Under the pieces are notes generated by a model, which saw nothing but the letters and a program-made list of their open reading frames with translations, made no database searches and was not told the DNA's origin. The position numbers and the translations under genes were made by a program. DNA of 64,000 nucleotides. Source: Flavobacteriales bacterium. GTDB taxonomy: Bacteria > Bacteroidota > Bacteroidia > Flavobacteriales_F > PHOS-HE28. Below, one piece after another: positions 2,129 through 38,032 of the stretch (position 1 is its first letter; the number at the start of each line of letters is the position of its first letter). The DNA is taken from contig JAHDVX010000009.1 of the NCBI GenBank assembly GCA_023382455.1, forward strand, positions 16,701 to 80,700, given 5' to 3'.

Positions 2129-2188
2129 CAACGCCTTGAACATGAACTAAACGGCGGCAACGCCGACAGGAAAAGGAAAGGAAGGAAA

Positions 2189-2410: not shown

Positions 2411-2435
2411 AGAACAGCAGAACACACCGACCCAA

Positions 2436-2552: not shown

Positions 2553-2565
2553 TAAACCGAAGAAC

Positions 2566-2943: not shown

Positions 2944-3017
2944 GATCAGTTGCCAGTTGTCAGTTGGCGGTAAACGGCTACTGACAACGGACAACGGACA
3001 ACCGACAACTGAAGACA

Positions 3018-3425
3018 ATGGCAAAGCAAGAGAAAGGCGGCGGGGCCGCAGGCAAGAAAAAGAAGAAGAACGTGGTGGTGGAAGCCTTCGGGCAAGCCCA
3101 CATCCGTGCTACCTTCAACAACCTGATCATCAGCCTCACCAACAACAAGGGCGAGGTGATCAGCTGGAGCAGCTCCGGGAAGATGGGTTTCCGCGGAAGC
3201 AAGAAGAACACCCCGTACGCCGGGCAGGTGAGCGCCGAGGAGGCCGCCCGCGAGGCGTTCGACCTGGGCCTGCGCAAGGTGAAGGTGTTCGTGCGCGGCC
3301 CCGGAGGCGGCCGCGAAAGCGCCATCCGCGCCCTGCACAACAGCGGTGTGGAGGTTACCGAGATCCTCGACCTTACCCCCATGCCGCACAACGGCTGCCG
3401 GCCGCCCAAGAAGCGCCGTGTCTAA
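3018..3425 (+). CDS. rpsK: 30S ribosomal protein S11
   Basis: A Lys-rich N-terminus followed by the conserved S11 core ([24 protein letters not shown]...). Confidence 0.95.
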
Positions 3426-11062: not shown

Positions 11063-11174
11063 GTGACGAATGTACCGATGCGCGGCTTTTCGTCTGGCTC
11101 GAGTGGGAATTGGGAAGGAATGGGCAAACCAAGCCGGCGAATGCAGGAGGGCTGCACCTTGGTCACTGCTTCCC

Positions 11175-11182
11175 TATATTTG
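11175..11182 (+). promoter_or_regulatory. Bacteroidota -7 element TATATTTG upstream of the hypothetical gene
   Basis: TATATTTG lies 39 nt upstream of the ATG at 11221. A TTG is 13 nt upstream, which is shorter spacing than consensus. Confidence 0.35.
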
Positions 11183-11220
11183 GGGGAGCACTTTCCGCCG
11201 CCACGGACAGTGGTCCCCGA

Positions 11221-12762
11221 ATGAAGCCCAGTACCGAGCTTTTCGACCTGATCAAATCGCTCTCCAAGTCGGAAAAGCGTTTTTTCAAGCTGCACTCGGC
11301 ACTCCAAAGCGGGGAGAAGAACTACCTGAGGATCTTCGATGCGATCGATCGCCAGAAGACCTATGACGAGGAGGCCATCAAGAAGCAGTTCGCCAAGGAG
11401 GTCTTCGTCAAGCATTTTCCATCGGAGAAGAACCACTTATACAAATTGGTGCTGAAGGCGCTGCGTGCGTACCACGCGGAATCCAGCATCACCGGAGTGC
11501 TGAAGCAGCACATCAACAACATCGAGATCCTCTTCGCCAAGGCGCTGTATTCCGAGGCGGCCAAAGTGCTTCAACGGGCGAAACGGACCGCGCAGGAGCA
11601 TGAGCGGTTCTACATCTGGTTCGAGCTGCTGGCTTGGGAGAAGATGCTGATCGAGGAGGACTACCACAGCGGTAACTTCAGTCACGACGTGGAGCGGTTG
11701 ATCGAAGAGGAGGCGGATGTGTTGGAGAAACTCAAGAACCTCGCGGCATACAACGTGCTCTACACCAAGATCAACTACGTGTTCCGCAGCGGCGGATATG
11801 TGCGTACCGATGAGGAACGCACCATCGTGGAGGAGATCGGGGAACACCCGCTGATCAAGGGGAAGAATACGGCCCTGAGCCACCGTGCGAGCACCATCTG
11901 CCATTACACCCAAGGCTTTTGCTACTGGGCCAAGCGCGAATGGGCGACCAGCTATGCGAAGTTCATGCGTGTCCGGGAGATCCTGGACAAGCACCCCCAG
12001 TTGAAGAAAGACCTGCCCAAGCGGTATGTGCGCACATTGTACTACCTGATCCAGTGCGAGATCGAATTGGGTGACCACGCGCACGTGATGGAGGACATCC
12101 GTAAGCTGCGTGAATTATCGGACAAGCCCGGGTTCGATGACATCGACATCCGGATCCTGGTGTTCTGCAACAGCTATTTGAGCGAACTCCGATACCATGA
12201 CCGCACGGGCGAGTTTGCCAAAGGGGCGGCCTTGGAGGACAGGGTGGTGCTGGGGATGGAGCGCATGGGGCCGCGCTTGCCGAAGGAATATGAACTGGAG
12301 TTCTACTTCCTGCTGTCCACGTTGCACTTCGGTGCCGGACAGATGAACCGCGCCCTGCACTGGCTGAACAAGGTGTTGAACGATCCCGAGCCCGCATTGC
12401 GGCAGGATATCTTCACTTACGCGCGCTTGTTCAACCTGGTGGTGCATTACGAGCTCGGCAACTTCGACCTGCTGGAATATATCGTGCGCAGTACGCAGCG
12501 CTTCCTCAGCAAGCGGCACCGGGCCTATGGAGTGGAGGCTGCCTTGATCGAGCACGTCAAGAAGCTGGCGCGTGCCACCTCCGATGAGGCCCGGAGGAAG
12601 CTGTTCCTTTCCCTGCGCGAACGGTTGAAGGCGTTGATGGAGGACCCGAACGAGGAAACGGTGCTCAAGTATTTCAATATCCGTGCCTGGGTGGACGCCA
12701 AGCTGGAGGATGTTCCGTTCAGCGAAGTGGTGAAGCGGGCCGTGGCCGGAAAGCCCCGGTAG
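11221..12762 (+). CDS. hypothetical all-helical protein (513 aa)
   Basis: The ORF is long and has codon bias consistent with its neighbours. The probable true start is MKPSTELFDLIKSLSKSEKRFFKL at 11221, downstream of the promoter-like motif. No family is recognised. Confidence 0.6.
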   Translation: MKPSTELFDLIKSLSKSEKRFFKLHSALQSGEKNYLRIFDAIDRQKTYDEEAIKKQFAKEVFVKHFPSEKNHLYKLVLKALRAYHAESSITGVLKQHINNIEILFAKALYSEAAKVLQRAKRTAQEHERFYIWFELLAWEKMLIEEDYHSGNFSHDVERLIEEEADVLEKLKNLAAYNVLYTKINYVFRSGGYVRTDEERTIVEEIGEHPLIKGKNTALSHRASTICHYTQGFCYWAKREWATSYAKFMRVREILDKHPQLKKDLPKRYVRTLYYLIQCEIELGDHAHVMEDIRKLRELSDKPGFDDIDIRILVFCNSYLSELRYHDRTGEFAKGAALEDRVVLGMERMGPRLPKEYELEFYFLLSTLHFGAGQMNRALHWLNKVLNDPEPALRQDIFTYARLFNLVVHYELGNFDLLEYIVRSTQRFLSKRHRAYGVEAALIEHVKKLARATSDEARRKLFLSLRERLKALMEDPNEETVLKYFNIRAWVDAKLEDVPFSEVVKRAVAGKPR

Positions 12763-12767: not shown

Positions 12768-14654
12768 CTACTTCCGTACACCGGCGTTGACCACCTTGAT
12801 CTCCGTCCGTCGGTTCTGCTGGTGCTCCTCCTCGGTGCATTCAACGCCGTCGTGGCAGCCGTTCACCAACATGGATTCGCCGTAGCCCCGAGCGATGAGT
12901 TGCTCATGCGGCACACCTTGGCGCAGCAGGTAGTCCACGGCGCTCTTGGCCCGGGCATCGCTGAGCACCAGGTTGTACAGGTCGCTGCCACGGCAATCGG
13001 TGTGGGAGCTCAATTCGAACACCAGATGGGGGTTGTCCATGAAGGTGCGTGCCAGTTTGTTCAGCTCCACCGCGGCATCCGGGCGGATGTCCCACTTGTC
13101 ATAGTCGTAATAGATGTTGGGCACCACGATCGGTTTCTCCAGTTCCAGGGGGTCGAGCATGATGTCCGCCCGGATATCGGAGCTGATGCCCAGCCCTACG
13201 GTGCTTACCATGGTGCTGCGGGCCAGCATGCTGTCGGATTGCACCAGGATGTTGTACACCCGGTTGGGGTCAAGCTTGAACGAGAAGTTGCCGTTGGCGT
13301 CCGCCGTGTCCTGCACGTTCATCAGGTCGGCCAGGTTTTGCAGGGTCACCAGGGCGAAGGGAACAGGCTTTCCATCCTGGGCATTGGAAATGGTTCCGGA
13401 TACGGTGAATTCAGGCGTGGGGATGATCAGCTCATGGATCAGGTCCGTACCCGTGCGCGAGCTGCTGAAATAGCCGTGCGTACCGGTGGAATCCAGCCAA
13501 AGGCCGAAGTCGTCCCGGGTGCTGTTCACGGGATAGCCCATGTTCTGCGGCTCGCTCCAGTATTCACCCTCGGGGTGGGTCTCGAAAATGTCCAGGCCGC
13601 CCATGTTGTTGTGGCCGGTGCTGGAGAAGTAGAGCGCGTCGCCCACCACGGTGGGGAACATCTCATCGCCGATGGTGTTGATGGACGGGCCCATGTTCAC
13701 CGGCGGCTCCCAGCCGGTGCCCAGGTTCCTGCTGTACCATAAGTCCTTGCCTCCATGCCCGCCGGGCATGTCACTGGTGAAGAACAACGTTTTGCCGTTC
13801 TTGCTCACCGCCGGTTGGCCCAAAGAGAAGCTCTCGCCGTTGTAGGCGAACTCCGTGATGTTGCCCCACGCCCCGTCTTCCCCCAGTGTGGCCCGGAAAA
13901 GCTTGAGGTTGCTGATGTTCTTCTGGTCCTTGATCAGTTTGCGGCCGTAGTAGTTGCTCCGGGTGAAGTAGAGGGTGCGCCCGCTGTCGGCAAGCGCAGC
14001 CGGGCCCTCGTGGAAGGGGCCGTTCACCGTGCCTTTGATGGGTTCCGGGGTGCCGGGGTTCCCTTGGGCATCCATGGTCACCAGGTACAGGTCGGCAAAT
14101 GATTGCCCGGACCAGGGGTCCTGCTTCGCCATGGTCGCCTCCTTTTGCCCGGTGAACAAGAGCCGGTCGCCGTGGGCCACGGGGGAGTAAGCCCTTGAAA
14201 TGCCTTGCATGGGCACGGGGCGGACCCGGTAGCGGAGGCTGTCGGTATAGAAGGATCGGTATCCCTGGCAGGCACCGATCAATTCCGCGATGTCGCTTTT
14301 TTCGGGACGGTCCTGCAGGGCCCGGACGAACATCGGTTCAGCCTCGGTGTACTTGCCCTGGGCCATCAGGAGCCTTCCGTAAGCGTAGGCATCATCACCC
14401 TCCAAAGGGGCCAGCTTCTCGGCGGCCGCGTAGTGCACGGATGCCTCCTCCACCTTTTCCTGCTTAAGCTCGGCTTGGCCGGCGAGCAGGAGGGTCCGCC
14501 GGTCTTCACCTTGTTTCAGGGCCTTGTCGAAGTGTTGCTCGGCCTGGGAATAGGCCAGGAGGCTCATGTCCTGTTCGCCCTTGCGCACGTGGTAGCTGGC
14601 GCAGGAACTGAACAGGAGCAATGTGGCGGCGGGAAGGAGCGCGTTATTCCGCAT
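12768..14654 (-). CDS. OmpA-family lipoprotein, PorE-like (TPR + WD40/TolB-like beta-propeller + carboxypeptidase-regulatory-like domain + OmpA_C)
   Basis: The lipobox is FSSC. The N-terminus has TPR repeats, followed by repeated propeller blades, a CRD-like segment (TVSGTISNAQDGKPVPFALVTL) and a C-terminal OmpA peptidoglycan-binding domain (HTDCRGSDLYNLVLSDARAKSAVDYL...RRTEI). Confidence 0.75.
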   Translation of the reverse strand: MRNNALLPAATLLLFSSCASYHVRKGEQDMSLLAYSQAEQHFDKALKQGEDRRTLLLAGQAELKQEKVEEASVHYAAAEKLAPLEGDDAYAYGRLLMAQGKYTEAEPMFVRALQDRPEKSDIAELIGACQGYRSFYTDSLRYRVRPVPMQGISRAYSPVAHGDRLLFTGQKEATMAKQDPWSGQSFADLYLVTMDAQGNPGTPEPIKGTVNGPFHEGPAALADSGRTLYFTRSNYYGRKLIKDQKNISNLKLFRATLGEDGAWGNITEFAYNGESFSLGQPAVSKNGKTLFFTSDMPGGHGGKDLWYSRNLGTGWEPPVNMGPSINTIGDEMFPTVVGDALYFSSTGHNNMGGLDIFETHPEGEYWSEPQNMGYPVNSTRDDFGLWLDSTGTHGYFSSSRTGTDLIHELIIPTPEFTVSGTISNAQDGKPVPFALVTLQNLADLMNVQDTADANGNFSFKLDPNRVYNILVQSDSMLARSTMVSTVGLGISSDIRADIMLDPLELEKPIVVPNIYYDYDKWDIRPDAAVELNKLARTFMDNPHLVFELSSHTDCRGSDLYNLVLSDARAKSAVDYLLRQGVPHEQLIARGYGESMLVNGCHDGVECTEEEHQQNRRTEIKVVNAGVRK

Positions 14655-15586
14655 CAGAAGAAGCGCGGGTTTTTGATCTGGATGGGCTCTTGTCCGAGGT
14701 CGATCCCGAGCATCACCTCATGGGATCCCCCGTTGTAGCGCCGCAGGTTGGAGGTGGTCATGTCATAGGCATAACCCGCCCGGAGCATGCGGCTGATCTG
14801 GTATTCCACCATGGCCACCACGGCATCCCCGGTCCGGTATCCGGCACCGATCCAGAACCGGTCCTTGAAAAGGACATTGAGATTGAGGTCCACTTCGGGG
14901 GGAGCTTGTGGCTGGTATTTCACGAGTACGCTGGGCTTCAGGTCGAAGTGCTCATTGAGCTCGAAAACGTGTCCGGCGTTAAGGTAATAGTGCTGGGTGA
15001 AGAAGTGCTCCTTCAGGCTGTTGATGGCCGAAGTGACCTTGCGGTCGGCCGCATAGATCATGGGCACGGAAAGGCCGGTGAAGGATCGTTCATTGCGCCA
15101 GTACAACCCGAAGCCGAACTTGCCGACCGTGGCATTGCTGATGTTCTGCTGGTACACGGCATCCTGCTGGTCCCAATAGATGAGTTCATTCAGGTTGGCC
15201 GTGTACATGGCCAGGCCCGCCTTGAGGCCGAAGGCGAGGTGTCCGTTCTTGCCGGTCCTGATGCGGTAGGCATAGTGCCCGGCCACTTCCATGTCGCGGC
15301 TCACGCCGATCATGTCATGGCTGAAGGTGAGGCCCAGGCCCATGTTGTTCCCGCGGATGGGACCATCGATGCCCAACAGGTTGGTGCGCGGTGCGCCGGA
15401 CATCCCGGTCCATTGGGAGCGGTGAACTGCGGTGGCGCCGGCATACGGATGGCTGCCTGCATAGGCCGGGTTCAGGAAGAGCCCGTTGAACATGTACTGG
15501 CTGATCATCAGCTCCTGCTGGGCATTGGCCCGGAAAGCGGAGCCTGCCAACAAGGCCGCGAAAAGGATGAGGCGGAAGTTGCGCAT
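14654..15586 (-). CDS. type IX secretion system membrane protein, PorP/SprF family
   Basis: The N-terminal motif is AQQELMISQYMFNGLFLNPAYAG. The protein is ~310 aa with beta-barrel-like composition and lies directly downstream of the type-B CTD cargo. Confidence 0.85.
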   Translation of the reverse strand: MRNFRLILFAALLAGSAFRANAQQELMISQYMFNGLFLNPAYAGSHPYAGATAVHRSQWTGMSGAPRTNLLGIDGPIRGNNMGLGLTFSHDMIGVSRDMEVAGHYAYRIRTGKNGHLAFGLKAGLAMYTANLNELIYWDQQDAVYQQNISNATVGKFGFGLYWRNERSFTGLSVPMIYAADRKVTSAINSLKEHFFTQHYYLNAGHVFELNEHFDLKPSVLVKYQPQAPPEVDLNLNVLFKDRFWIGAGYRTGDAVVAMVEYQISRMLRAGYAYDMTTSNLRRYNGGSHEVMLGIDLGQEPIQIKNPRFF

Positions 15587-15605
15587 GGTCTTTCGCAGGT
15601 TGGGT

Positions 15606-18600
15606 TCAACGGCGGAGATCGACGTAGTTCTGCAAGGTTTGTTCGGCGTTCAAGCGAAGCACCACGAAGTAGGTGCCGTTGGGCAGCTGCTGGCCCTGTT
15701 GGTTTTCACCGCCCCACTGGTTGCTGTACCGCAGTTGGTCGTACACCACGTTGCCCCAGCGGTTGAACACGGTGATCTGGTTCTCCGGGAAGGCCTCGAT
15801 GCCTTGCACCACGAAGAAGTCGTTGTCGCCGTCGCCGTTGGGCGTGAAGCCGGTGGGCATCCTGATGTCATCCGGTTCGGTCAGGATGATGGTCAGTTCC
15901 AGGGTACAGCCGTTTGCATCGGTCACGGTCACGGTGTAGGTGCCCGCATGGAGGCCATGGCGGTCCGCATCGCCGGAGCCGTCGTTCCACGCGTAGCTGT
16001 ACGGTGGTGTTCCTCCGGTCACGTTCAGCTCAATGGAGCCGTCATTGCCGTTCCATGTGCTCACATTGTGGCCGCTTGCATACTGGGATACCACCGTGTC
16101 TGCCACAAGTTCGGCGGGTGCATCAACCGTGATGGCCTGCTGCGAGGTGCAGCCGTTGGCATCGGTAACGGTCACCGAGTATATGCCGCCAGCCAAGCCC
16201 TGCAGGTCTTCGTCCGTGGCACCCGTACTCCAGAGGAAGGTGAAGGGTGCAGTACCGGCTGATACGGTGAGGTCAATGCTGCCGTCGGCGGAACCGTGGC
16301 AAAGCGGGTTGGAGACCGCGGATGAGGTTTCCACTGCCGGACTGCCGGTAATGGTGGCCGTGGCCGTGGCACTGCAATCATTGGCATCGTTCACGGTGAT
16401 GGTATAGGTGCCGGGGGCCAGGTTGGCCAGGTCCTCGGTCTGTGCGCCGTTGTCCCAGACCGTGGTGAACGCGGGGCTGCCACCGGTGATGGAGGCGTCG
16501 ATGGCACCGTTGTCCAGTCCGCAGGAGGCATGGGTGGCAATGGTGCCCACGGTGAGTTCATCCGGGCCGATCAACGTGATGCTGTCCTGCACACTGCACC
16601 CGTTGCTGTCCACCACGGCGAGGTAGTAGGTGCCTGCGGCCAAGGCGAAGGGGCTCAGGTCGCTGGATGAATAGCCGCCGGGGCCGGTCCACGTGTGCGT
16701 GTAGGGTGCGTGGCCGCCGCTGATGGCCGCCATGATGGCGCCGTCACTGGCGCCGAAGCAGCTGATCATGGTGCCGCCCGGATAGGTGATGGCATTGATC
16801 GAAAGCGTCACCGGCGGTGCGGGCACCACGGTTGCGGAATCCGAGATGGAGCAACCGTTGGCATCGGTGACCGTGATGGCGTACACGCCGGGGGCCAACC
16901 CCGAGATGCTGTCCTGTGCCGAGCTGAACCCGTTCGGGCCGGTCCAGCTATACGTGTACCCGGGCGTGCCGCCGGCTGCAAGCGTGGTGATGGCGCCATC
17001 GTTGGAGTCCGCGCAGGTGGTATTGCCACCGCCGTATTCCGCCAAGGACAAGGCAACGGTGAGCAGGGAGTCCGGTTGGCCGATGGTCGCCTGCACGGTG
17101 TAGGTGCACTGGTTGGCATCCACCACCACCAGCTCGTATGCGCCTGCGCCGATGCCGGTGATGTCCTGTGTGCTGTAGTGTGTGCTGTCCGGGCCGCGCC
17201 AGTCGAACGTGTACGGTGCGGACCCACCGGACACCACCGCGCTTGCACTGCCGTTCATCGCCCCGTGGCAGAGGAGGTCGGCCGTGGAGATGGCAGCAGA
17301 GAGGATGCTGTCCGGCTCGGTCAGGGTGATGGAGGTATCGCGCACGCAGCTTTGGCTGTCGGTGATCGTGGCCTGGTAAGTGCCGGCCGCCAGCCCATTG
17401 ATATTGGCGGTGTTGGCCAGGAAGCCGCCGGGGCCGACCCAAGCGATGTCCAACGGCGCATGGCCGCCGGTTACGGTAAGCTCGATCGTACCGGTGCTGG
17501 CGCCGTGGCAGGCGATGTTCACCGCGCCGTACTGGCTGGCATAGAGGTCAAGCGTGATCGGGGCTGCCGGGATCACCGTGGCTTGCGCGTTGGCCGTGCA
17601 TCCGGTGGCACTGGTCACGGTAACGGCATACACACCGCTGGCCAGGGAGGCGATGTCTTCATCCGAGGAAGTGAAGCCGCCGGGGCCTGTCCAAAGGATG
17701 GTGAACGGCGCCACGCCACCGCTGATGGTGAGGTCGATGGCGGCGTTGCTGGAGGTATCGCAGGCATTGTTGGTCACTGCGAGGCTGGCTTGCAGGTTGT
17801 CCGGGGCCGTCAGCGTGAAGGAGCGGCTGGTGGTGCAGTTATTGGCATCAGTGATCTGCACGGTGTACGTGCCAACCGCCAGGTTCACGATGTCCTCGTT
17901 CGAGGAGGCGAAGCCATTGGGTCCGTTCCAGTTGAACTGGTACGGGGCCAAGCCGCCGGCCACGGAGAGGTCGATGGAGCCGTCCTGCCCATTGCATCCC
18001 ACTTCATATCCGCCATGGTCGGAAAGCACGGCCGTGGTGGTGATCGGGAGTGGCGCGGTGAGGGTGACCGAGTTGTATGCCGCGCATCCGGCAACGTCGA
18101 TGATGGTGACGTTATAGGTCCCGGGTGCGAGGCCCTGCAGCGAGGTCTGTTGCGAGTTGAACCCGCCCGGCCCCGACCAGGTCACGGTGTAACCCGGACT
18201 TCCGCCGGATACCGCCAGCGTGATGGTGCCGTCCGCAGCACCGGCGCAGGACACCGCATGGCCATTGCTGAACACCGAGGTGGTGATGGTGGAGGCCAGC
18301 GGCGATGGCGCGCTCAGCACCACTTGGGCGGCCGCATTGCATCCGTTGGCATCGGTGATGGAGACCGTGTACGTACCGGCCATCAGGTTGGCGATGTCCT
18401 CCTGGTTCGCTTGGAAGCCGTTCGGTCCGGTCCAGTTCACTTGGTACGGGGCCGTGCCGCCACTGATCACCAGGTCGATGCTGCCGTCGGCGGCGTCAGC
18501 GCAGCTCACATGGTAACCGTTGGGGTGTTCCATGGCCGTGGTCTGCACGTCCAGCCCGATCGGGTTGTTGAGCGTGATGCTTGCCGAGGTTGAACATCCG

Positions 18601-21600
18601 AGGGCATCGGTGATCTGGGCCACGTAGGTGCCTGCCCCCACGTCGGTGAGGTTGGGCGAAATGCCCAGAGGTCCGTCGGGTCCTGTCCAAGAGATGGTGT
18701 ATGGGGCATTTCCGCCCGTGATGAAAGCATCGATGCTGCCTTCCTGCCCGCCTGCACAGGCGGGTTGGCTGGTGGCCACCAGGCCGACTTGGAGAGGCGA
18801 GGGTGCCACGAGGGTGAAGCTTTGGGTGGCGTTGCAGCCGTTGGCGTCATGTACGGTCAGGCTGTAGGTGCCCGCCGCCAGGCCGTTGAGGTCAAGGCTG
18901 ATGGAGGTGAAGCCGTTCGGTCCGTTCCAGAAGTAGCTGTACGGGGCCGTGCCTCCGCTGACGGTGGCATCAATGCTGCCGTCCATCGCATCCGCGCAGC
19001 TCACATGGTAGCCGCCGGCCAAGGTGCTCAGCACCGCAGTGATCTGGAAGAGGCCTGGTTGCCCCACGTTGTAGGCTTGTGTGGAAGTGCATCCGGCGGC
19101 ATCGGTCACCGTAACGGTGTACACGCCGGCCAGGAGGCTGCTGATGTCCTCCGTGGTGGCGGAGAAGGCCGGGAAGCCGGTCCAGGCGTAGGTGTACGGT
19201 CCGGTGCCTCCGGTCACGGCCAGGTCGATGGCCCCGGTGTTTGCGCCTTGGCAGGCGGCGGTGGTGATCGCGGCGGTGAGTTCGATGGCCGTTGGTTGTG
19301 CCAGGGTTTCTGCATACGTTGCCGTGCAGCCGTTGGCATCCGTCACCGTCACGGTGTAGCTGCCGGCGATGGTGCCGGAGAGGTCTTCCGTGGTGGCGGT
19401 GAACACGCCCGGACCGTACCATTGGAACGCATAAGGTGCCGTTCCGCCGGATACCTGGAGGTCGACGGCGCCGTCACTGCCTCCGTTGCACAGCAGATCG
19501 GTGCCGCTTGTGGCCAAGGAGATCGGGGCAGGTGCCGTGAGCGTTGCGCTGACCGAGGTGGAGCATCCATTGCCATCGGCCACGGTGGCGGTGTAGGTGC
19601 CGGCGGCAAGCCCGGTAAGCTGCCAGGCACCGGAAGTGAAGCCGCCGGGACCGGTCCATACCACGGTATAGGGCGGTGCACCACCGGCCGGTGTAAGCGT
19701 GATGGCACCATCCGTGGAGCCGTTGCAGCTGATGCCAGCACCGCCGGCGAAGGTTTGGGCAACGGCGGTGGCACTGATCGGCGGTGGTTCCATCAGCGTG
19801 GTGCTCGAGGTTACGGTGCAGCCGTTCGCATCGGTGATCGTGAGCGTGTAGGTTCCCGCTGCCAGGTAGTCGATGTCCGCCGTGCTGGCCGTGAAGCCGT
19901 TCGGCCCGGTCCAGGAGAAGGTATAAGGAGGTGTGCCGCCATCAAACTGCGTGATGATCTGGCCGTCGGCGCCCCCGGCGCAACTGATGTCGTAACCGCC
20001 GTGATTCTTCACCGAGATGACGAAGGCCGTCAGCGGTGCCGGAGGTGCCAGCGTGGTGCTGTACAAGGCTGAGCATCCGTTGCCGTCGGTGAGCGTCAGG
20101 TGGTAGCTGCCCGGGGCAAGGCCGGAAATGTCGGCCGTCGTAGCCGTGAATCCATTGGGCCCGATCCACGAGTACCAATAGGGGGGGGTGCCGCCACTTG
20201 CGGTCACCTGGATGGATCCATTGTGGGAGTTGCTGCACGATACCTCGCTCTGCACAGCATTGAAAGTGAACATCCCGGGTTCGGTGACATCGAAGGGCTG
20301 CACCAAGTGGCAGTTGTTCGCATCCGTGATGGTGATGGTATATACCCCCGCAGCCAGCTGGGACAGGTCCGCCGTGGAAGCGGTGAACCCGTCCGGCCCG
20401 CTCCAGTGATAGGTGAATGGTGCCACACCGTTGGCCACGGTGAGGTCAATGCTGCCATTGCTTTCGCCGTGGCAAATAGCGGATTGCACGGTCGCGGTGG
20501 CCATCATGGGCACGGGTGCAACCAGGGTGATGGACGTGTCCGTGAAGCAACCGTGTCCATCCCCGACAATGAGGTGGTAGGTGCCAGCCGCAAGTCCGGA
20601 TGGATCTTCCGTGGTGAAGATGTTGCCGAAGCCGTCCTGCCAGTGGTACTGGTAAGTGGGCGTACCGCCTGTCACGGTCACCTCGATGCTGCCGTCGCTG
20701 TTGCCCGGACAGCTTACATGGGCCCCGCCCGGATACGTGAATGGCGCGAGGGCGATGTTCACGGGTGCCGAGGGCCCGCCGATGGTGTGCGTGTACTGTA
20801 GCGCCTGCGCGCAGCCGTTGGCATCGGTGATGGTGGCCGTGTAGGTACCCGGCGCCAGGCCGTTGATGGTGCTGCCTGTCTGCACCGGCACGGTGTTCCA
20901 AACGATGTTATAGTTGCCGCTTCCGCCGGCCACTTGGATGGAGCCGCTGCCGTCATCGTCCCCGAAGCAGGTCACCGGCTGGGTGTTCGACACGGTGGCT
21001 GTGATGGGCTGTTGCGGCTGTGTGATCACCACGCTTCCCGTGGCGGTGCAACCATTGGCATCGGTAACGGTGACGCTCCACGTGCCGGCGGTCAATCCCG
21101 AAGCCGTGGCATCGGTGTTGACCGGCACGGTGTTCCACGCCCAAGTGTATGGTGCCGTTCCTCCTGTTGCCTGGGCCGTGGCCGCACCGGTTTGGCCGCC
21201 GTGGCAAAGCACGTGGGTGATGGAAGGGAAGGAAACGGACAGCGGTGCACTGGGCCCGGCGACCGTTACGCTGGTGGAGGCGGTGCATCCGTTCGCATCG
21301 GTTACCGTGACGCCGTATGTGCCCGCAGGCAGGCCTGTGGCCGTGGCCGCGAACTGCGGGGGCACGGTGGCCCAGGCATACGTGTAAGGCGCGGTACCGC
21401 CGGCAGCCTGCATGGTGGCTTGGCCGTTGCTGCTGCCATGGCAACTCACCGGGGTGGAGCCGGCCGGGGTGGCTGCAAGTGCATTGGGAGCGGTGAGCAC
21501 GGCGGTCTGCGTGGTGCTGCAACCGTTCGCATCGGTGATGGACAATTGGTAGCTGCCGGCTTCCAATCCCATAAGGTCCTCTGCAGCGGAGATGAAGCCG

Positions 21601-24600
21601 TTGGGGCCGGACCAGGACGTGGTGTACGGCGCGTTGCCACCGGAGATGGCGGTGTTGATGCTTCCGTCGTTCCCGCCGAAGCAGGAAACAGAGGTGTTTC
21701 CATGTACACCAAGGGTGAGCTGTGCCGAGATTGCGGGCGGTGCGCTGAGGATCACATCGTGGCCCGTGCTGCAGCCATTGTCATCGGTGATGCTCACCTG
21801 GTAGCTGCCCGCGGCTAGTCCCGTGGGGTCTTCCTGTACGGAGGTGAAGCCGCCTGGTCCGGTCCAGCTGAAGCTGTACGGCGGCATGGCACCGGTGACG
21901 GTCAGGTCGATGCTGCCGTTCGTGCTGGCCGGGCAGCTCACGTTGGCATTGCCGAAGATGCTCACCGTACTGCTCACGGTGAAGAGGCCGGGCTGGTTGA
22001 TGTCAAAGCTCGTCGTGGACGAACAACCGAGGGCATCGGTCACAGTAAGCGAATACCCGCCGGTCGGCACGCCCGCGATGTCCTCCGTGGTGGCGGTGAA
22101 TCCGCCCGGGCCGTTCCATGCGTAGGTGTAGGGGCTGGTGCCGCCGCTGACCGAGGCATCCACCGCACCGTCCGCCGCGCCTTGGCACTGTGCGGGTTCC
22201 ACCACGCCGCTCACCGCCAAGGGCGACGGCTCGGTGATGGTGACCGAGGCAGTGGTGGAGCAAGCCAGCTCATCGGTGACCAGCACTTCCCAAGTGCCGG
22301 GCGGCAGTGCGGTGGCCGTGCTGCCCAGCTGTGCGGGCGTGGTGTTCCACTGGAAGGTGTACGGCGCCGTCCCCCCGCTAACGTTCACCGTGGCGGTCCC
22401 GTTCTGCTCGCCGGCACAGGTAACATTCCCGAAGCTGCCGATGCTCGCCGTCAGTGCTGCGGTCGGCGCCGTGATCACCACCGTTTGGGTGGCCGTGCAT
22501 CCATGGATGTCCGTTGCCGTGGCGGTGTAGGTGCCAGCGGGAAGGCCGCTGGCGGTGGCGCCGTTCTGCACGGGCACCGTGTTCCAGGAATAGCCGTAGG
22601 GCCCGGTGCCCCCCGAGGCTTGTACCGTGGCCAATCCCGTGGGTTCCCCGTGGCAAGCGACATTTTCTTGCGCGGCGATCGACAGGCTCAACGCGAGTGC
22701 AGGTTCCTGGATGACCATCTGGAGGGTGGCGGTGCAACCGTTGGCATCGGTCACCGTGGCGGCATAGGTCCCACCGGCAAGGCCGCTTGCCGTGAGGCCA
22801 TTTTGCACCGGATTGGTGTTCCAGGCCACGGTGTAGCCGGGCGTGCCGCCGGAAACGCTGATCGTGGCGCTGCCGTTGGCGGCACCATGGCAGCTTACGT
22901 TGGTCTTGGCGGCCAATTGCACGGTCAGCGGCACGGTGGGGCCTTCAATGGTCACGGTGGAACTCACCGTGCATCCGTACTGGTCGGTGGCCGTTACCGT
23001 GTAGCTGCCGGGGTTGAGGCTGGTGGCCGTGGCCGTGCCCTGTACCGGAACGGTGCTCCAGCTGTACGTGTAGATGGGCATGCCGCCGGTCACGGTCACG
23101 GTGGCCGAGCCATCCTGGTCGTTGGCGCAGGCCACATGGGTCGTGTCTGTGATCTCAGCGGCCATCGGGGCACTTTCGGTCATGGTGATGCCGGCCGTGG
23201 CGGTGCAGCCGTTTGCATCAGTGATGGTGACGTTGTAGGTGCCGGCGATCAGGTTGCCGATGTCCACGGCATTGGAGATGAATCCGCCGGGACCGGTCCA
23301 ACTGGCACCGTAAGGACTCGTGCCGCCGGTGATGGTGGCGTCAATGCTGCCGTCGTTGCCGCCATGGCAGCTGATGTTCTGGCCGAAGATGAGCAGCGAT
23401 GGGGCCAGGGAGACCGACAACGGGGCCGGTTGGCCCACATTGAAACTCATGGTTTTGCTGCATGCGGCATCGGTGATGGTCACCGTGTACGTGCCTGCGG
23501 CGATGGACGCGATATCCTCGGTGGAAGCGGTGAAACCGCCCGGTCCGGACCAAAGGAAGGCATACGGCGGAATGCCTCCCGCGACGGACAGGTTGATGGC
23601 ACCGTTGGCGGCACCAGCGCACAGCGGCGGTGTGATGCTTGCCGTTCCGGTGATGTTGCTCACGTTGACGGTGGACTGCAGAATGGCGGAGCAGGCACCG
23701 TGTGTGATGTTGACGGTGTACGTGGTGGTTATGCTGGGCGAGGCCGATGGCCCGGGAATGTTCGTTGCACTGAGGCCCGCGGCCGGTGACCACGCATATT
23801 GTGCACCTCCCGTGGCGAGGAGGTCCATTTGCCCGCCGATGCAGATATTGCTCATCACCGGGCTCACCGTTGCGTGGAGCGAGTCCACTACCGGGATCAC
23901 CAGGGTGTCGAGCACGGTACCGGGGCAGTCCGGGTTGCCCAGGATCACCAGGATGGTTTCAGGGGAGTCCGGCGTGTTGTCCGCGACCAGTTGGATGGCC
24001 TGGTCCGCCGAGGCTTGGTTGGCCGGGATGATGATGGTCTTCGGCACAGACGGGTTCACATCACCGATAGCCGTATAGTCCGTGCCGTTGATCGCGGTGC
24101 CGTGCAGGTAGTATTCCAGTGTCAGCGGTTGGTTGGTGACCGTTTGGCGGGTGAAACGGATCAGGCCATTGTTGCACCCTTCGATCAAGGAATCGCTTCC
24201 GTTCTGGGTGATCACTTCCAAGGTCACCGGGTTGCTTTCCACCTTGGCGATGAAAACGCCGGAATCGTATTTGCGGTCCGAGGCGTCCGCCACCACGAGC
24301 TTCAGGTGGTAGGTTTCGCAGGGCTGCACTTGGGAAATGGCACTCAGCCCGGTGGTGAACCCGTCGTACTGCACATACTGGCCACCCGCATTGTCGAAGT
24401 AGAAGGATGCGTTCGATCCGTTGTTCACGTTGTTGATCGTCACCGCCTGGTTGGTGCCGGGGACCAAGGCGATGTTCTTGTCATTGCCGATGCCGGGGTC
24501 GCCGGTGATGCCCGGCCCGCTGATGAAGAAGCCGAACACGTCGTTGTATTGCGAACCGACCCATTCGTTGTATTCCTCGGAGGCGAACACGAAATCGAAG

Positions 24601-24995
24601 CGGAGGCTGTCCCCGGCGGGGATCACATCGAACTCGAACTTGCAGGCATCGCGCGTTTCCCGGCCCGTTACCGTGTTCAGCAGGGTGTTGCCTGGGCGGC
24701 CTTGGCTGAAGGTCTTGTCCTCCACATCATTCGGGCCCACGGCATTGCTGATGGTGCCGGAGGTGAGCAGGATACCCTCGTCGATGCCCAGCAGGCTGCC
24801 GCTGTACTGGAATTCACCGAAGCCGTCGTCATGGCAATCCACTTGCGGGTTGGCAATGACCACGCCCGGGCCCGTGATGGCGCGGGCCAGCTGGATGAGG
24901 TCGGTCTGGGGGGAAACCGCCAGTTGGGCGAAGGTGAGGGAAGCAGCTAGGGCCAAGGCACCCGTGACGGCCGTGCGGATGAAGTTGCTGCTCAT
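15606..24995 (-). CDS. giant SprB-repeat cell-surface adhesin with a T9SS type-B C-terminal domain (3129 aa)
   Basis: The signal peptide is MSSNFIRTAVTGALALAASLTFAQ. There is an N-terminal choice-of-anchor-L-like domain (FDFVFASEEYNEW...VFGFFISGPG) and a Calx-beta-like segment. About 32 tandem ~75-aa SprB repeats follow (C.G..DGSI...V.GGT.PY.Y.W.GP.GFTA.TEDI..L.AG.Y.VTVTDANGC). The C-terminal type-B CTD is ...PTGFTPNGDGDNDFFVVQGIEAFPEN...NRWGNVVY. The ORF track starts 58 codons upstream at an alternative start. Confidence 0.85.
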   Translation of the reverse strand: MSSNFIRTAVTGALALAASLTFAQLAVSPQTDLIQLARAITGPGVVIANPQVDCHDDGFGEFQYSGSLLGIDEGILLTSGTISNAVGPNDVEDKTFSQGRPGNTLLNTVTGRETRDACKFEFDVIPAGDSLRFDFVFASEEYNEWVGSQYNDVFGFFISGPGITGDPGIGNDKNIALVPGTNQAVTINNVNNGSNASFYFDNAGGQYVQYDGFTTGLSAISQVQPCETYHLKLVVADASDRKYDSGVFIAKVESNPVTLEVITQNGSDSLIEGCNNGLIRFTRQTVTNQPLTLEYYLHGTAINGTDYTAIGDVNPSVPKTIIIPANQASADQAIQLVADNTPDSPETILVILGNPDCPGTVLDTLVIPVVDSLHATVSPVMSNICIGGQMDLLATGGAQYAWSPAAGLSATNIPGPSASPSITTTYTVNITHGACSAILQSTVNVSNITGTASITPPLCAGAANGAINLSVAGGIPPYAFLWSGPGGFTASTEDIASIAAGTYTVTITDAACSKTMSFNVGQPAPLSVSLAPSLLIFGQNISCHGGNDGSIDATITGGTSPYGASWTGPGGFISNAVDIGNLIAGTYNVTITDANGCTATAGITMTESAPMAAEITDTTHVACANDQDGSATVTVTGGMPIYTYSWSTVPVQGTATATSLNPGSYTVTATDQYGCTVSSTVTIEGPTVPLTVQLAAKTNVSCHGAANGSATISVSGGTPGYTVAWNTNPVQNGLTASGLAGGTYAATVTDANGCTATLQMVIQEPALALSLSIAAQENVACHGEPTGLATVQASGGTGPYGYSWNTVPVQNGATASGLPAGTYTATATDIHGCTATQTVVITAPTAALTASIGSFGNVTCAGEQNGTATVNVSGGTAPYTFQWNTTPAQLGSTATALPPGTWEVLVTDELACSTTASVTITEPSPLAVSGVVEPAQCQGAADGAVDASVSGGTSPYTYAWNGPGGFTATTEDIAGVPTGGYSLTVTDALGCSSTTSFDINQPGLFTVSSTVSIFGNANVSCPASTNGSIDLTVTGAMPPYSFSWTGPGGFTSVQEDPTGLAAGSYQVSITDDNGCSTGHDVILSAPPAISAQLTLGVHGNTSVSCFGGNDGSINTAISGGNAPYTTSWSGPNGFISAAEDLMGLEAGSYQLSITDANGCSTTQTAVLTAPNALAATPAGSTPVSCHGSSNGQATMQAAGGTAPYTYAWATVPPQFAATATGLPAGTYGVTVTDANGCTASTSVTVAGPSAPLSVSFPSITHVLCHGGQTGAATAQATGGTAPYTWAWNTVPVNTDATASGLTAGTWSVTVTDANGCTATGSVVITQPQQPITATVSNTQPVTCFGDDDGSGSIQVAGGSGNYNIVWNTVPVQTGSTINGLAPGTYTATITDANGCAQALQYTHTIGGPSAPVNIALAPFTYPGGAHVSCPGNSDGSIEVTVTGGTPTYQYHWQDGFGNIFTTEDPSGLAAGTYHLIVGDGHGCFTDTSITLVAPVPMMATATVQSAICHGESNGSIDLTVANGVAPFTYHWSGPDGFTASTADLSQLAAGVYTITITDANNCHLVQPFDVTEPGMFTFNAVQSEVSCSNSHNGSIQVTASGGTPPYWYSWIGPNGFTATTADISGLAPGSYHLTLTDGNGCSALYSTTLAPPAPLTAFVISVKNHGGYDISCAGGADGQIITQFDGGTPPYTFSWTGPNGFTASTADIDYLAAGTYTLTITDANGCTVTSSTTLMEPPPISATAVAQTFAGGAGISCNGSTDGAITLTPAGGAPPYTVVWTGPGGFTSGAWQLTGLAAGTYTATVADGNGCSTSVSATLTAPAPISLATSGTDLLCNGGSDGAVDLQVSGGTAPYAFQWYGPGVFTATTEDLSGTIAGSYTVTVTDANGCTATYAETLAQPTAIELTAAITTAACQGANTGAIDLAVTGGTGPYTYAWTGFPAFSATTEDISSLLAGVYTVTVTDAAGCTSTQAYNVGQPGLFQITAVLSTLAGGYHVSCADAMDGSIDATVSGGTAPYSYFWNGPNGFTSISLDLNGLAAGTYSLTVHDANGCNATQSFTLVAPSPLQVGLVATSQPACAGGQEGSIDAFITGGNAPYTISWTGPDGPLGISPNLTDVGAGTYVAQITDALGCSTSASITLNNPIGLDVQTTAMEHPNGYHVSCADAADGSIDLVISGGTAPYQVNWTGPNGFQANQEDIANLMAGTYTVSITDANGCNAAAQVVLSAPSPLASTITTSVFSNGHAVSCAGAADGTITLAVSGGSPGYTVTWSGPGGFNSQQTSLQGLAPGTYNVTIIDVAGCAAYNSVTLTAPLPITTTAVLSDHGGYEVGCNGQDGSIDLSVAGGLAPYQFNWNGPNGFASSNEDIVNLAVGTYTVQITDANNCTTSRSFTLTAPDNLQASLAVTNNACDTSSNAAIDLTISGGVAPFTILWTGPGGFTSSDEDIASLASGVYAVTVTSATGCTANAQATVIPAAPITLDLYASQYGAVNIACHGASTGTIELTVTGGHAPLDIAWVGPGGFLANTANINGLAAGTYQATITDSQSCVRDTSITLTEPDSILSAAISTADLLCHGAMNGSASAVVSGGSAPYTFDWRGPDSTHYSTQDITGIGAGAYELVVVDANQCTYTVQATIGQPDSLLTVALSLAEYGGGNTTCADSNDGAITTLAAGGTPGYTYSWTGPNGFSSAQDSISGLAPGVYAITVTDANGCSISDSATVVPAPPVTLSINAITYPGGTMISCFGASDGAIMAAISGGHAPYTHTWTGPGGYSSSDLSPFALAAGTYYLAVVDSNGCSVQDSITLIGPDELTVGTIATHASCGLDNGAIDASITGGSPAFTTVWDNGAQTEDLANLAPGTYTITVNDANDCSATATATITGSPAVETSSAVSNPLCHGSADGSIDLTVSAGTAPFTFLWSTGATDEDLQGLAGGIYSVTVTDANGCTSQQAITVDAPAELVADTVVSQYASGHNVSTWNGNDGSIELNVTGGTPPYSYAWNDGSGDADRHGLHAGTYTVTVTDANGCTLELTIILTEPDDIRMPTGFTPNGDGDNDFFVVQGIEAFPENQITVFNRWGNVVYDQLRYSNQWGGENQQGQQLPNGTYFVVLRLNAEQTLQNYVDLRR
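15900..23657 (-). repeat. intragenic tandem array of ~225-bp SprB-domain-encoding repeats (~32 copies, divergent)
   Basis: Periodic recurrence of the PY.Y.W...TVTDANGC motifs in translation. The boundaries are approximate. Confidence 0.7.
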
Positions 24996-25351
24996 TGGCC
25001 TCGCACGATTTCGCATGCGGCCTCGGCGGCATGCAGGGTGATCTCTTCCGGTTCGATCCGCTGCGGGGCGATGATCGCGGCCAAAGTGCTGGCCACCTGG
25101 TCGCGCAAGGCTTGCCGCGAAACGGTCCCGTCCTGGGTGGCGAACACCACCAGCCCGGCGGGCACGCACGCGTAGATCATGCGCATGTCGCCCGAGGCCC
25201 GGGCACTCGCGGCCAAGGAGTCACGTTCGGCGCTGGTGAGCGCGGTGATGCGCAGGCCCATGGACTCTTGGGCGAGCAGGGGCCGATGGGAGATGCATGT
25301 GAGAAGCAAGGCCAGGGATATGGCACGGAGCACTACAGCTGTTCTAGCCAT
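24992..25351 (-). CDS. small secreted hypothetical protein (118 aa), translationally coupled to the adhesin gene
   Basis: The signal peptide is MARTAVVLRAISLALLLTCISHRPLLAQ. Its TGA stop overlaps the adhesin ATG (ATGA). No family is recognised. Confidence 0.5.
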   Translation of the reverse strand: MARTAVVLRAISLALLLTCISHRPLLAQESMGLRITALTSAERDSLAASARASGDMRMIYACVPAGLVVFATQDGTVSRQALRDQVASTLAAIIAPQRIEPEEITLHAAEAACEIVRGQ

Positions 25352-25478
25352 GGGAAGATGGGGACTTCGTGGATTGAATGGGGAGCGTATGGCTGTCTAA
25401 CGGCCATTGTACCCGACGGAACCCCTGAAGGTTTCGACGGATCCGGGCCGGGCACAGGCCAAGTCCAAGGTGCGTTGA

Positions 25479-26276
25479 TCAGCGGACCCCTTGCCCGGGG
25501 TCGGTCGGGCGCCGTTGGCGCAGCGCCTCATGTAGCGCCACGCCGGCTGCCACACCGACGTTCAGGGAGCCGATCCGGCCACCCATGCGGATACGGGCCA
25601 AGGCATCCGCCTTGCGGAGTATGGCGGGCGAGATGCCGGTATCCTCGGCCCCGAGCACCAGCACCACCGGCCCGCGCAGGTCGCAGTCCTCGATCAGGGT
25701 GTCCGCCTTTTCCGTCACCGCCACCACGCGCAGACCGTTGGCCTGTGCGCTTTCCAAGGCGGCCGGGAGCCTGTCCACGCGGCAAACGGGCTTGCGCAGC
25801 AAGGCTCCTGCGCTGCTTTTCACGGCATCGCTCCCCAGGCGCGCGGTGCCGGTTTTCGGCACCACCAGGCCATGGGCGGCAAAGCACTCGGCACTGCGGG
25901 CGATGGCCCCGATGTTCCGCACGTCGGTCACGCCGTCCAAGGCCACCAGGAACGGATCCTCACCCTGCTGGTACAATTGGGCGATCAGGCCATCGAGGTC
26001 CTGCATTGCCACGGGGCTGATGAAGGCGATCACGCCCTGGTGTTCGGTCCGTGTAAGGCGGTCCAGTTTTTCCGATGGAACGGGCTGCCAGGGTACACCA
26101 AGCTCCTGGGCCAGCTGTTTCACCTCCCGGACGGCCTCGCCGCCGGCATCGCGCCGCAGCAGGAGTTTCTCCACATGCAGCCCGCCGCGCAGCGCCTCGA
26201 TCACCGGGCGTGTGCCGCAGATCAGTTCGTCCTTCGCCACCCGTGGGCGGTCCCGTTGTGGGCCGTGTCGTTGCAT
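25479..26276 (-). CDS. rlmB: 23S rRNA (guanosine-2'-O)-methyltransferase, SpoU/TrmH family (RlmB-like)
   Basis: An N-terminal SpoU_sub_bind-like region and a SPOUT domain with LVLGAEDTGIS... Confidence 0.8.
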   Translation of the reverse strand: MQRHGPQRDRPRVAKDELICGTRPVIEALRGGLHVEKLLLRRDAGGEAVREVKQLAQELGVPWQPVPSEKLDRLTRTEHQGVIAFISPVAMQDLDGLIAQLYQQGEDPFLVALDGVTDVRNIGAIARSAECFAAHGLVVPKTGTARLGSDAVKSSAGALLRKPVCRVDRLPAALESAQANGLRVVAVTEKADTLIEDCDLRGPVVLVLGAEDTGISPAILRKADALARIRMGGRIGSLNVGVAAGVALHEALRQRRPTDPGQGVR

Positions 26277-26286
26277 GTTCTGGGGT

Positions 26287-27558
26287 TCAGTAGGGCAGGA
26301 TCCGTCCGTTGCGCCAGCTCTCCACGTTGCGGTACCAGGCGCTTTTCAGCTGCGGGTCGCGGCGAAGCATGAGGTCGTTGTTGCTGAAGGGCTCCTCGCG
26401 CCGCACGAAGGTGAACACCAGGCTCATCAGGTTCGATTCATCCCCGTAGGTCCAGCTTTCCCCCTCGGCGGATTTCCGGATGGTGGTGGGCGTGCCGAAG
26501 ATGATGTGGACCAGTCCGCGGTCGGTTCGCCAGCCTTCGGTGTAGCTGGTGAAGTGGCGGTTGGCGCTTTCCACCCTGCCGTAATACGCGGCGATGGCCT
26601 CGCGGGCGCGGTCACGGCTGCCTGCCGCATCGGTCCAGAATCGTTCCACCTGCTTCCGGGGGTCAGGGGCAGCGGCGATCTCCTCCCACTCCTTGTTGCT
26701 GGTGATGTAGCGTAGTGGGGCCACCATGTCCTCCGCGGTTTGGATGGTGGGGTAGGCCGGCCCATGCACGTACAGGGTGAAGCCGTTGGTGGAAGCCGTA
26801 TCCGCACGGAAGTGGTAGAAACCGCTGTTCCCGGCGGTGAACGGGAAGGTGCCGTCCGCGCCCACCATCACGGAGAAGCTGCTGTCCGGTGGCCCGCCCA
26901 GCGCCGGCGGCTGGGCCTGGGTGAAGACGGGTGCCGGCAGTTGCTCCACGGCCGCGAAGTGGTCCACGGTCAGCACGGTTTGGGCGTGCCGTTCAGCCTG
27001 CACGTTGATCCGCGTGCCGGGCGCCACATGGTCGTCGAACAGGGGCAGGTTGTCCGGGCGCAGCGGCAGGAAGTCCCGGGCACCGCTGGCCTTGGCGCGA
27101 TCCATGCGCAGGAGCACGGTGCTTTGCACGTCGCGGTTCAGGTCGTGCGCGGTGATCCGTAGGATGAACGGCTCATCGCGTGTCAGCTTCAGTGGCATGC
27201 TCCCGATCAGCTCCTTGTCCTCCGTGGGGGTCAAGGCCTGGTCCCGGATGGACGTGCTGGCGCTGTCCAGCAACTGCCTCGATCCGGGTTCCGGGAAGGC
27301 CTCATAGCGCATCTGCACGCGCGCGTAGTAGGGTCCGCCTCCGCCGCTGCCCTTGTACAGCAGGTCGGCGGTGCGCAGCTTGAAATAGATCACGGCCTGG
27401 CCATCGGCGGGCTGGTAAACGCGTGCGTCGAGCCGCACGTCCGTGGCTCCCTTGCCGTAGAGGTAGGCGAAGTTGTCACCCGTGGCCACGGGGGCTTGTG
27501 ATCCGCAACCGGCCAGCAGGGCCGCGGCGGAAACCAAGGGAAGGATCTGGCGGATCAT
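26287..27558 (-). CDS. GWxTD domain-containing lipoprotein
   Basis: Lipoprotein signal (LLAGCGS). The C-terminal GWRTDRGLVHIIFGTP matches the GWxTD motif typical of Bacteroidota. Confidence 0.7.
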   Translation of the reverse strand: MIRQILPLVSAAALLAGCGSQAPVATGDNFAYLYGKGATDVRLDARVYQPADGQAVIYFKLRTADLLYKGSGGGGPYYARVQMRYEAFPEPGSRQLLDSASTSIRDQALTPTEDKELIGSMPLKLTRDEPFILRITAHDLNRDVQSTVLLRMDRAKASGARDFLPLRPDNLPLFDDHVAPGTRINVQAERHAQTVLTVDHFAAVEQLPAPVFTQAQPPALGGPPDSSFSVMVGADGTFPFTAGNSGFYHFRADTASTNGFTLYVHGPAYPTIQTAEDMVAPLRYITSNKEWEEIAAAPDPRKQVERFWTDAAGSRDRAREAIAAYYGRVESANRHFTSYTEGWRTDRGLVHIIFGTPTTIRKSAEGESWTYGDESNLMSLVFTFVRREEPFSNNDLMLRRDPQLKSAWYRNVESWRNGRILPY

Positions 27559-37971: not shown

Positions 37972-38032
37972 GATGTTCGGGGGATTGTCGGGCCCGCGAA
38001 GGCCAAGGTAGGGGCTTCGCACCGGCCGGGGG

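Follow-up and report, generated by a model that had tools for sequence, protein, structure and literature searches.

Gene Organization of the Cassette

The stretch of DNA analysed here, called the window below, comprises 64,000 nucleotides of contig JAHDVX010000009.1 from a Flavobacteriales bacterium (assembly GCA_023382455.1). Based on the list of its open reading frames (ORFs) and their translations, four tightly coupled minus-strand genes were recognised. They encode, in this order, a small secreted protein, a giant adhesin with the features of a type-B cargo of the T9SS (type IX secretion system), an outer-membrane beta-barrel of the PorP/SprF family, and an OmpA-family lipoprotein that resembles PorE (Table 1). 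The junctions reported in the initial annotation could be read directly from the sequence. The stop codon of the small gene overlaps the start of the adhesin gene in an ATGA at 24992–24995, the adhesin and PorP genes are separated by a 19-nt gap ('...CGTTGA ACCCAACCTGCGAAAGACC ATG'), and the PorP and PorE-like genes share 1 nt (TGATG, 'TTCTGATGCGG'). The longest ORF of the adhesin extends further, to a GTG at 25169. Sec signals are present on all four products. The GC content of the window is 58–67%.

Table 1. Genes of the cassette and domains of their products (positions are those of the window)
Feature	Position	Strand	Description
Small secreted protein	24992..25351	−	119 aa
Giant T9SS type-B cargo adhesin	15606..24995	−	3129 aa counted from ATG
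Signal peptide of the adhesin	24927..24995	−	aa 1 to ~23, MSSNFIRTAVTGALALAASLTFA/Q, by inspection of translation
Choice-of-anchor-L domain	24243..24893	−	aa 35–251, jelly-roll beta-sandwich at distal tip
Calx-beta-like beta-sandwich	23916..24233	−	aa ~255–360
Ig-like domain	23658..23909	−	aa ~363–446
Array of 32 SprB repeats	15891..23633	−	aa ~455–3035, PF13573
Type-B T9SS C-terminal sorting domain	15609..15863	−	aa 3045–3129, contains FTPNGDGDNDFF
PorP/SprF-family outer-membrane beta-barrel	14654..15586	−	310 aa, signal peptide present
PorE-like OmpA-family lipoprotein	12768..14654	−	628 aa
OmpA_C peptidoglycan-binding domain of the PorE-like protein	12786..13121	−	aa 512–623, motif TD..G....N..LS..RA

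The Giant Adhesin

The mature adhesin has a mass of ~312 kDa and a pI of 4.05, and the protein contains 70 Cys residues. An AF2 (AlphaFold2) model of it has an N-terminal helix at residues 2–18. The choice-of-anchor-L domain, which is the best-conserved part of the protein, matched the Choice_anch_L model NF038133 with 242 bits; a literature search for 'choice-of-anchor L' returned no papers. The initial annotation had also named a Calx-beta-like segment. A Pfam scan of aa 246–460 gave no match to Calx-beta (PF03160) at E ≤ 5, and the question was settled by structure: the segment has the Calx-beta fold and is homologous to annotated Calx-beta segments. A Foldseek search of the PDB with the head domains returned generic beta-sandwich and Calx-beta matches only.

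The stalk matched the SprB family in 32 stretches with a total of 878 bits. The repeat units are 78–86 aa long, and 31 of them carry a Cys pair spaced 50–54 residues apart; the 32nd is degenerate and lacks the first Cys. Tandem Repeats Finder detected no DNA-level tandem array in the adhesin gene, indicating that the units have diverged and making a collapse of repeats unlikely. Intact orthologues of 3131 aa and of 3133 aa (the latter with 32 repeats) were found at loci L002 and L085. Misassembly of the giant ORF was rejected, since the lengths of the orthologues agree within 4 aa, and an assembly artefact is unlikely. In two related assemblies, a pair of long ORFs takes the place of the intact orthologous gene (L087, 581–9978; L088, 441–9979); a frameshift, a fault in the assembly or genuine pseudogenisation could account for this.

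The C-terminal sorting domain (CTD) matched the type-B model TIGR04131 with 55.8 bits (cut-off 35) and CHU_C PF13585 with 86.2 bits (cut-off 27). When the last 149 aa were scanned by themselves, the type-B model scored 62.1 bits and the type-A model, which also cross-hits, 32.0 bits; the CTD was classed as type B because of this difference. The adhesin thus combines a CTD above the cut-off, an N-terminal signal peptide recognised by inspection, and a porP/sprF-like gene directly downstream, as is characteristic of type-B cargos of the T9SS. By analogy with such cargos, it is predicted to be secreted via the T9SS and its cognate shuttle.

The PorP/SprF Partner and the PorE-Like Lipoprotein

The third protein matched TIGR03519 with 271.6 bits (cut-off 90.55) over model positions 4–291 of 292, and PF11751 with 255.6 bits, in agreement with its annotation as a PorP/SprF partner of the adhesin. 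A sequence search of the PDB with this protein gave no match. It is predicted to be the cognate shuttle and anchor for the adhesin CTD.

The fourth protein carries, by inspection, a lipobox (LLFSS/C18) and the peptidoglycan-binding OmpA_C motif HTDCRGSDLYNLVLSDARAKSAV. It matched TPR, PD40 (beta-propeller), CarboxypepD_reg, and OmpA_C models, which together make up the four-domain PorE architecture. The Pfam scores were 31.3 bits for PD40, 35.8 bits for CarboxypepD_reg and 49.4 bits for OmpA; the TPR models gave E-values of 3e-6 to 1e-4, each under its own gathering score. The best PDB match of the OmpA_C domain was 6TOP, the C-terminal domain of Porphyromonas gingivalis PorE (E 2e-20). At full length, the protein scored 361.3 bits with T9SS_PorE (NF052230, model positions 7–597 of 648), where the cut-off of 600 was not reached. 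The top NCBIfam score, 391.7 bits, was obtained with the CHU_0125_OmpA model (positions 8–638 of 639), also short of its cut-off of 620. Because it lies below both NCBIfam equivalog cut-offs, the protein is filed as a PorE-like paralogue and not as PorE, to which it is equivalent by architecture only. The four-domain architecture proposed in the initial annotation therefore stands, while the PorE cut-off is not passed. All searches with hidden Markov models (HMMs) that the initial annotation had proposed as checks (type-B CTD, SprB, PorP/SprF, OmpA_C, CarboxypepD_reg) were positive, the large ORF is intact at orthologue lengths, and the genes are tightly coupled.

The Small Protein

The 119-aa protein has a Sec-type signal peptide with cleavage around LLAQ/ES. 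Its fold is beta-alpha-beta-beta-alpha-beta (an HMA-like ferredoxin fold) with a C-terminal helix. No family was found for the full-length or the mature protein in Pfam and NCBIfam at E-values of up to 5, and a PDB sequence search with a profile of the small-protein family gave no match. The protein contains no CxxC motif and has no thioredoxin fold. The loop between beta1 and alpha1 reads LTSAERD, without Cys. Membership in the HMA family was considered and rejected: the fold fits, but there is no CxxC motif and no Pfam HMA match at E ≤ 5.

A profile seeded by four close homologues recruited 115 representative clusters, nearly all of 110–130 aa, in which an invariant Cys62 and Cys113 and an ACVPAG motif are the only strongly conserved features. 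Source annotations of the family read 'hypothetical protein', with the exception of one label from JGI, 'spore coat protein U-like protein'. A genome scan found the small protein in 79 species-level genomes, nearly all labelled by NCBI as metagenome-assembled genomes (MAGs) of uncultured Flavobacteriales or Bacteroidota. The adhesin orthologue directly follows the small gene in 77 of these 79 loci; in the two exceptions, the contig ends just past the small gene. At the genome loci, the identity is 30–56% for the small protein versus 55–74% for the adhesin head. Among the fetched loci, 79 could be evaluated for an ATGA overlap, which is available in ~55; in the rest the distance is ≤11 nt, save one at 49 nt.

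The same linkage is seen in metagenomes. Of the PorP-anchored metagenome loci, 17 contain the start of the adhesin gene, and the family HMM places the small gene directly 5′ of it in every one, also in low-GC lineages (33–48% GC) with adhesins of 1940–2690 aa. Every fetched Flavobacteriales locus with room for it, at GC contents of 33–70%, has the small gene directly 5′ of the orthologous adhesin. A spurious small ORF was rejected as an explanation in view of this protein-level conservation across GC 33–70%, the signal peptide and the confident fold. As judged from these comparisons, the small protein is a new, uncharacterised conserved family that is strictly linked to the SprB-repeat adhesin. 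Thus, the initial verdict that it has no recognisable family holds for curated libraries, but a real conserved family exists.

Conservation of the Cassette

Metagenome contigs were scanned with the PorP protein, and tblastn searches were run with the window proteins. All 53 related loci with enough sequence on that side encode a type-B CTD directly 5′ of the PorP orthologue, and a PorE-like gene lies directly 3′ of PorP in 47 of the 50 with room for it. The three loci without a downstream PorE-like gene are those of the most distant PorP relatives (30–35% identity). The GC content of the related PorP loci ranges from 0.29 to 0.63.

Four loci (L151–L154, two distinct cassettes) encode short cargos of 614–775 aa that have a CHU_C tail and no SprB repeats; it is these cargos that carry the NCBI label Chitinophagales or Bacteroidetes. 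The small gene is absent from all four. The head of the short cargos is 37–42% identical to that of the adhesin over >90% of the first 460 aa, and several of the homologues carry a Calx-beta annotation. Downstream of the short cargos lie the same PorP and PorE-like genes. Taken with the counts above, this shows the three-gene core to be widespread and ordinary. At L153 (5001–12328) and L154 (3633–10960), whose cargo cluster carries the NCBI label Bacteroidetes, tandem choice-of-anchor-L type-B cargos of 775 and 749 aa precede one PorP/PorE-like pair, which suggests that two paralogous cargos can make use of a single shuttle and anchor.

Genes for a SpoU-type methylase, a GWxTD protein, and RmuC lie immediately upstream of the cassette (25479–28874, minus strand), the RmuC and GWxTD genes overlapping by 4 nt. 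This block is wholly syntenic in the high-GC relatives L001–L003, and the adjacency to the SpoU gene is kept in the low-GC loci L148–L150; the cassette therefore occupies a fixed, vertically inherited chromosomal site. On this evidence of synteny, the locus is conserved vertically across a clade of uncultured Flavobacteriales; this conservation is a new observation. Several MAGs with the locus (L009, L024, L033, L037, L042, and others; local GC 58–66%) were deposited as 'Cryomorpha ignava', 'Chryseobacterium gleum', or 'uncultured Chryseobacterium sp.', and these deposits look mislabelled.

Proposed Mechanism and Alternative Readings

P. gingivalis has a complex of PorE and PorP with the type-B cargo PG1035; this complex associates with the PorK/N rings, and SprF is known to bind SprB (Gorasia et al. 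2022, PMC9143113). Six porP-like genes of Flavobacterium johnsoniae adjoin porE-like genes, while sprB/sprF do not, and it was proposed that a PorP-like protein alone holds mobile cargos, whereas PorP together with a PorE-like protein ties immobile ones to the wall (PMC9143113). In a 2025 Communications Biology study, Fjoh_3952, which requires the downstream shuttle Fjoh_3951 and is encoded next to the PorE-like Fjoh_3950, formed static foci only, whereas none of the dynamic cargos SprB, Fjoh_4750, or Fjoh_1123 has a PorE-like neighbour (PMC12618676). The gene order in the window is of the Fjoh_3952 type, with a PorE-like gene, and a static, peptidoglycan-tethered adhesin is therefore the best-supported outcome. 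We consider it probable that the cassette is a cargo/PorP-like/PorE-like operon that gives a static, cell-wall-tethered adhesin together with a small periplasmic partner.

The gene structure, domain identities, conservation, and linkage presented above are established; the proposed interactions, the anchoring as a static complex, and the route of secretion are modelled on P. gingivalis and F. johnsoniae. By this analogy, the 3129-aa cargo would enter the periplasm, and the T9SS translocon would recognise its type-B CTD. The PorP/SprF-like beta-barrel would then collect the cargo and hold it at the cell surface by means of the CTD. The PorE-like lipoprotein, made in translational coupling with PorP, would bind PorP by its TPR and propeller domains and peptidoglycan by OmpA_C, and this bridging would fix the complex to the cell wall. 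The result would be a static, disulfide-stapled stalk of ~32 repeats, whose conserved head (jelly-roll, Calx-beta, and Ig-like domains) may bind a surface, a particle, or another cell. The small protein, produced together with the adhesin through the ATGA coupling, would stay in the periplasm because it has no CTD.

The initial annotation had left motility and attachment side by side. The PorE-like gene in the operon predicts attachment, and the likeness to SprB and gliding is the weaker half of that claim. It is quite unlikely that the adhesin is a mobile gliding-motility adhesin, an analogue of SprB that the PorP/SprF partner loads onto the gliding track. The 32 SprB repeats, the type-B CTD and the adjacent PorP/SprF-family gene would fit such a role, the gliding machinery is indeed the destination to which some type-B CTDs direct their cargo (PMC12618676), and homologues are named 'gliding motility-associated C-terminal domain-containing protein' in the sources. 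However, the operon contains a PorE-like peptidoglycan anchor that is kept in 47 of the 50 related loci, sprB/sprF and the other dynamic cargos lack such a neighbour, and the one PorE-linked cargo that was imaged is static. Moreover, a SpoU methylase gene lies upstream in place of sprC- or sprD-like genes, and the window holds no gld or spr genes. By analogy with the tested F. johnsoniae cargos, attachment is more likely than gliding. We regard it as very unlikely that the cassette houses the one core PorP and the one core PorE of the organism's T9SS, as in P. gingivalis, with the adhesin in the role of PG1035. The locus does resemble a core set in being syntenic, apparently single-copy, and present at one site beside SpoU across the clade, and the P. 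gingivalis complex associates with the core rings. But the PorE-like protein, at 361 bits, is far from the T9SS_PorE cut-off of 600 and slightly closer to the CHU_0125 paralogue model, F. johnsoniae has ten PorP-like and several PorE-like genes as cargo-specific copies (PMC9143113, PMC12618676), and in two of the four short-cargo loci two tandem cargos use one PorP/PorE pair, as is typical of cargo cassettes.

A static adhesin thus remains the preferred reading of the three larger genes. As to the fourth, the small protein is most likely a dedicated periplasmic partner of the SprB-repeat cargo, either a chaperone/holdase or an assembly factor; this role is speculative and is drawn from the linkage only. 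A literature search for a cargo-specific periplasmic chaperone of the T9SS returned nothing relevant. It is unlikely, though conceivable, that the protein is instead a co-exported stoichiometric subunit, that it masks or inhibits the head, or that it assists the 31 Cys pairs as a redox helper. The strict linkage and the coupled translation, which suggests 1:1 production, would agree with such functions, as would the occurrence of the protein only where the cargo has Cys-paired SprB repeats and the restriction of strong conservation to two invariant Cys and ACVPAG. On the other hand, a protein without a CTD has no known route across the outer membrane, the absence of a CxxC motif and of a thioredoxin fold speaks against a redox helper, and evolution faster than that of the head is more in line with a helper under loose constraint than with a tight inhibitor. 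If the protein is indeed a dedicated periplasmic partner, it may, tentatively, stand for an undescribed class of cargo-specific periplasmic T9SS accessory factors, gained by the Flavobacteriales clade with the Cys-paired stalk. The small protein would then be required for maintaining a ~300-kDa adhesin with 70 Cys in a secretion-competent state, or for passing the adhesin on to the PorP shuttle.

Several points weigh against the proposed mechanism. The evidence is computational throughout. The rule that separates static from mobile cargos comes from few tested proteins, Fjoh_3952 being the sole PorE-linked cargo that was imaged. The T9SS core and the gliding genes of the genome are assumed; none lies within the 64-kb window. 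Equivalence of the lipoprotein to PorE is by architecture, with both equivalog scores under their cut-offs. Co-transcription of the four genes is suggested by their spacing, but promoter and terminator signals are at chance level: in a sigma-70 promoter scan, a terminator scan, and a search for the Bacteroidetes −7 motif TAnnTTTG, no candidate exceeded the chance level and none lay upstream of the operon, and these scans carry no information on transcription. In the low-GC loci L148–L150, the small gene lies ~75 nt from the adhesin gene, so strict translational coupling is not universal. Finally, the fold of the small protein is generic and gives no functional clue.

Genomic Surroundings

The cassette is flanked by housekeeping genes (SecY, RpoA, ribosomal proteins, CarA, enolase, GAPDH, GatB, LpxK, and ProRS), and no other T9SS or gliding gene was found in the window. 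The spacer between the SpoU gene and the small gene (25352–25478, 127 nt) contains no recognisable promoter motif. In relatives, a 76-aa ORF on the opposite strand was called in this spacer (L001, 9758–9988; L003, 3726–3956, minus strand); in these high-GC sequences it is probably spurious. On the other side, a convergent plus-strand gene of 587 aa (10999–12762) ends 5 nt from the stop codon of the PorE-like gene. Its product has no significant Pfam family, with TPR-type matches below threshold only, and matched the NCBIfam BT2802 family 'ribose utilization protein' over its full length with 222 bits, below the cut-off of 550.

The minus strand at 36553–42270 encodes two proteins with a TlpA/AhpC-like thioredoxin fold and a long N-terminal extension (592 and 389 aa as scanned), on either side of an ORF of ~1000 aa with a weak match to M1 peptidases; the two may be periplasmic redox proteins. 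A 633-aa minus-strand ORF (29752–31653) has a weak C-terminal match to the Omp85 superfamily (36.6 bits) and is possibly an outer-membrane assembly or transport protein unrelated to the cassette. A plus-strand cluster for polysaccharide export and biosynthesis occupies positions 54386–63216. It encodes a Wza-like Poly_export/SLBB protein, a Wzz/GNVR protein of the tyrosine-kinase type, a flippase, a Wzy_C-like protein, and a GT2 glycosyltransferase, and includes two ORFs without a family.

Comparison with Known Systems

By analogy with described loci, the cassette belongs to a known operon type, of the Fjoh_3952 kind rather than that of sprCDBF. Only for the small-protein family was no precedent found in the libraries and literature searched; the remainder confirms known biology. 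Records of the locus come from activated-sludge, lake, and groundwater metagenomes, and the cassette allows one to predict from sequence by what means this uncultured Flavobacteriales clade may attach to surfaces or flocs. The predicted structure is a long stalk, stapled by disulfides and tipped by a lectin-like head, that PorP and the PorE-like protein would fix to the wall.

The small protein differs from HMA/Atx1 metallochaperones in several respects. Their MxCxxC motif is replaced by LTSxxRD in the small-protein family, or is unconserved in low-GC relatives. The small protein also has an extra C-terminal helix and the conserved Cys62/Cys113 pair, and is exported, whereas HMA/Atx1 proteins are cytoplasmic. 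CHU_0125 of Cytophaga hutchinsonii is, like the fourth protein of the cassette, a PorE-like, Pal-like lipoprotein; its phenotype concerns general outer-membrane integrity (PMC5891637) and not the anchoring of a specific cargo. With P. gingivalis PorE (PG1058), PorP, and PG1035, the cassette shares the four-domain PorE architecture with a lipoprotein signal, and the predicted tripartite logic is the same, the cargo being held on PorP and PorP on a peptidoglycan-binding PorE. In P. gingivalis, however, the three genes are not grouped in a cassette, and both PorP and PorE belong to the core in single copy, whereas here the PorE-like protein is encoded together with the cargo.

Short choice-of-anchor-L cargos have a homologous head and the same PorP and PorE-like genes, but neither the SprB stalk nor the small gene. 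The short cargos without the small gene, the ~1950–2700-aa versions, and the 3130-aa versions with the small gene form a natural series for comparing static with mobile type-B cargos and for studying the periplasmic handling of very large T9SS cargos. SprB of F. johnsoniae is ~6500 aa long and mobile, whereas the adhesin described here has 3129 aa and is predicted to be static. Both have SprB repeats (PF13573), a type-B CTD, and a PorP/SprF-family gene directly downstream. In place of the sprC and sprD genes of the sprCDBF locus, the 119-aa gene and the SpoU methylase gene are found upstream, and the PorE-like gene that is absent from the sprB operon is present.

The closest likeness, as judged from the published description, is to Fjoh_3952–3951–3950. 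The cargo of the window differs from Fjoh_3952 in its choice-of-anchor-L/Calx-beta/Ig-like head and its 32 SprB repeats, and its operon has a fourth, translationally coupled small gene, none being mentioned for the F. johnsoniae operon in PMC9143113 or PMC12618676. The two loci agree in gene order (cargo, PorP-like, PorE-like), in the type-B CTD, and in the position of the shuttle gene immediately downstream of the cargo, and for both a static, cell-wall-anchored complex is predicted.

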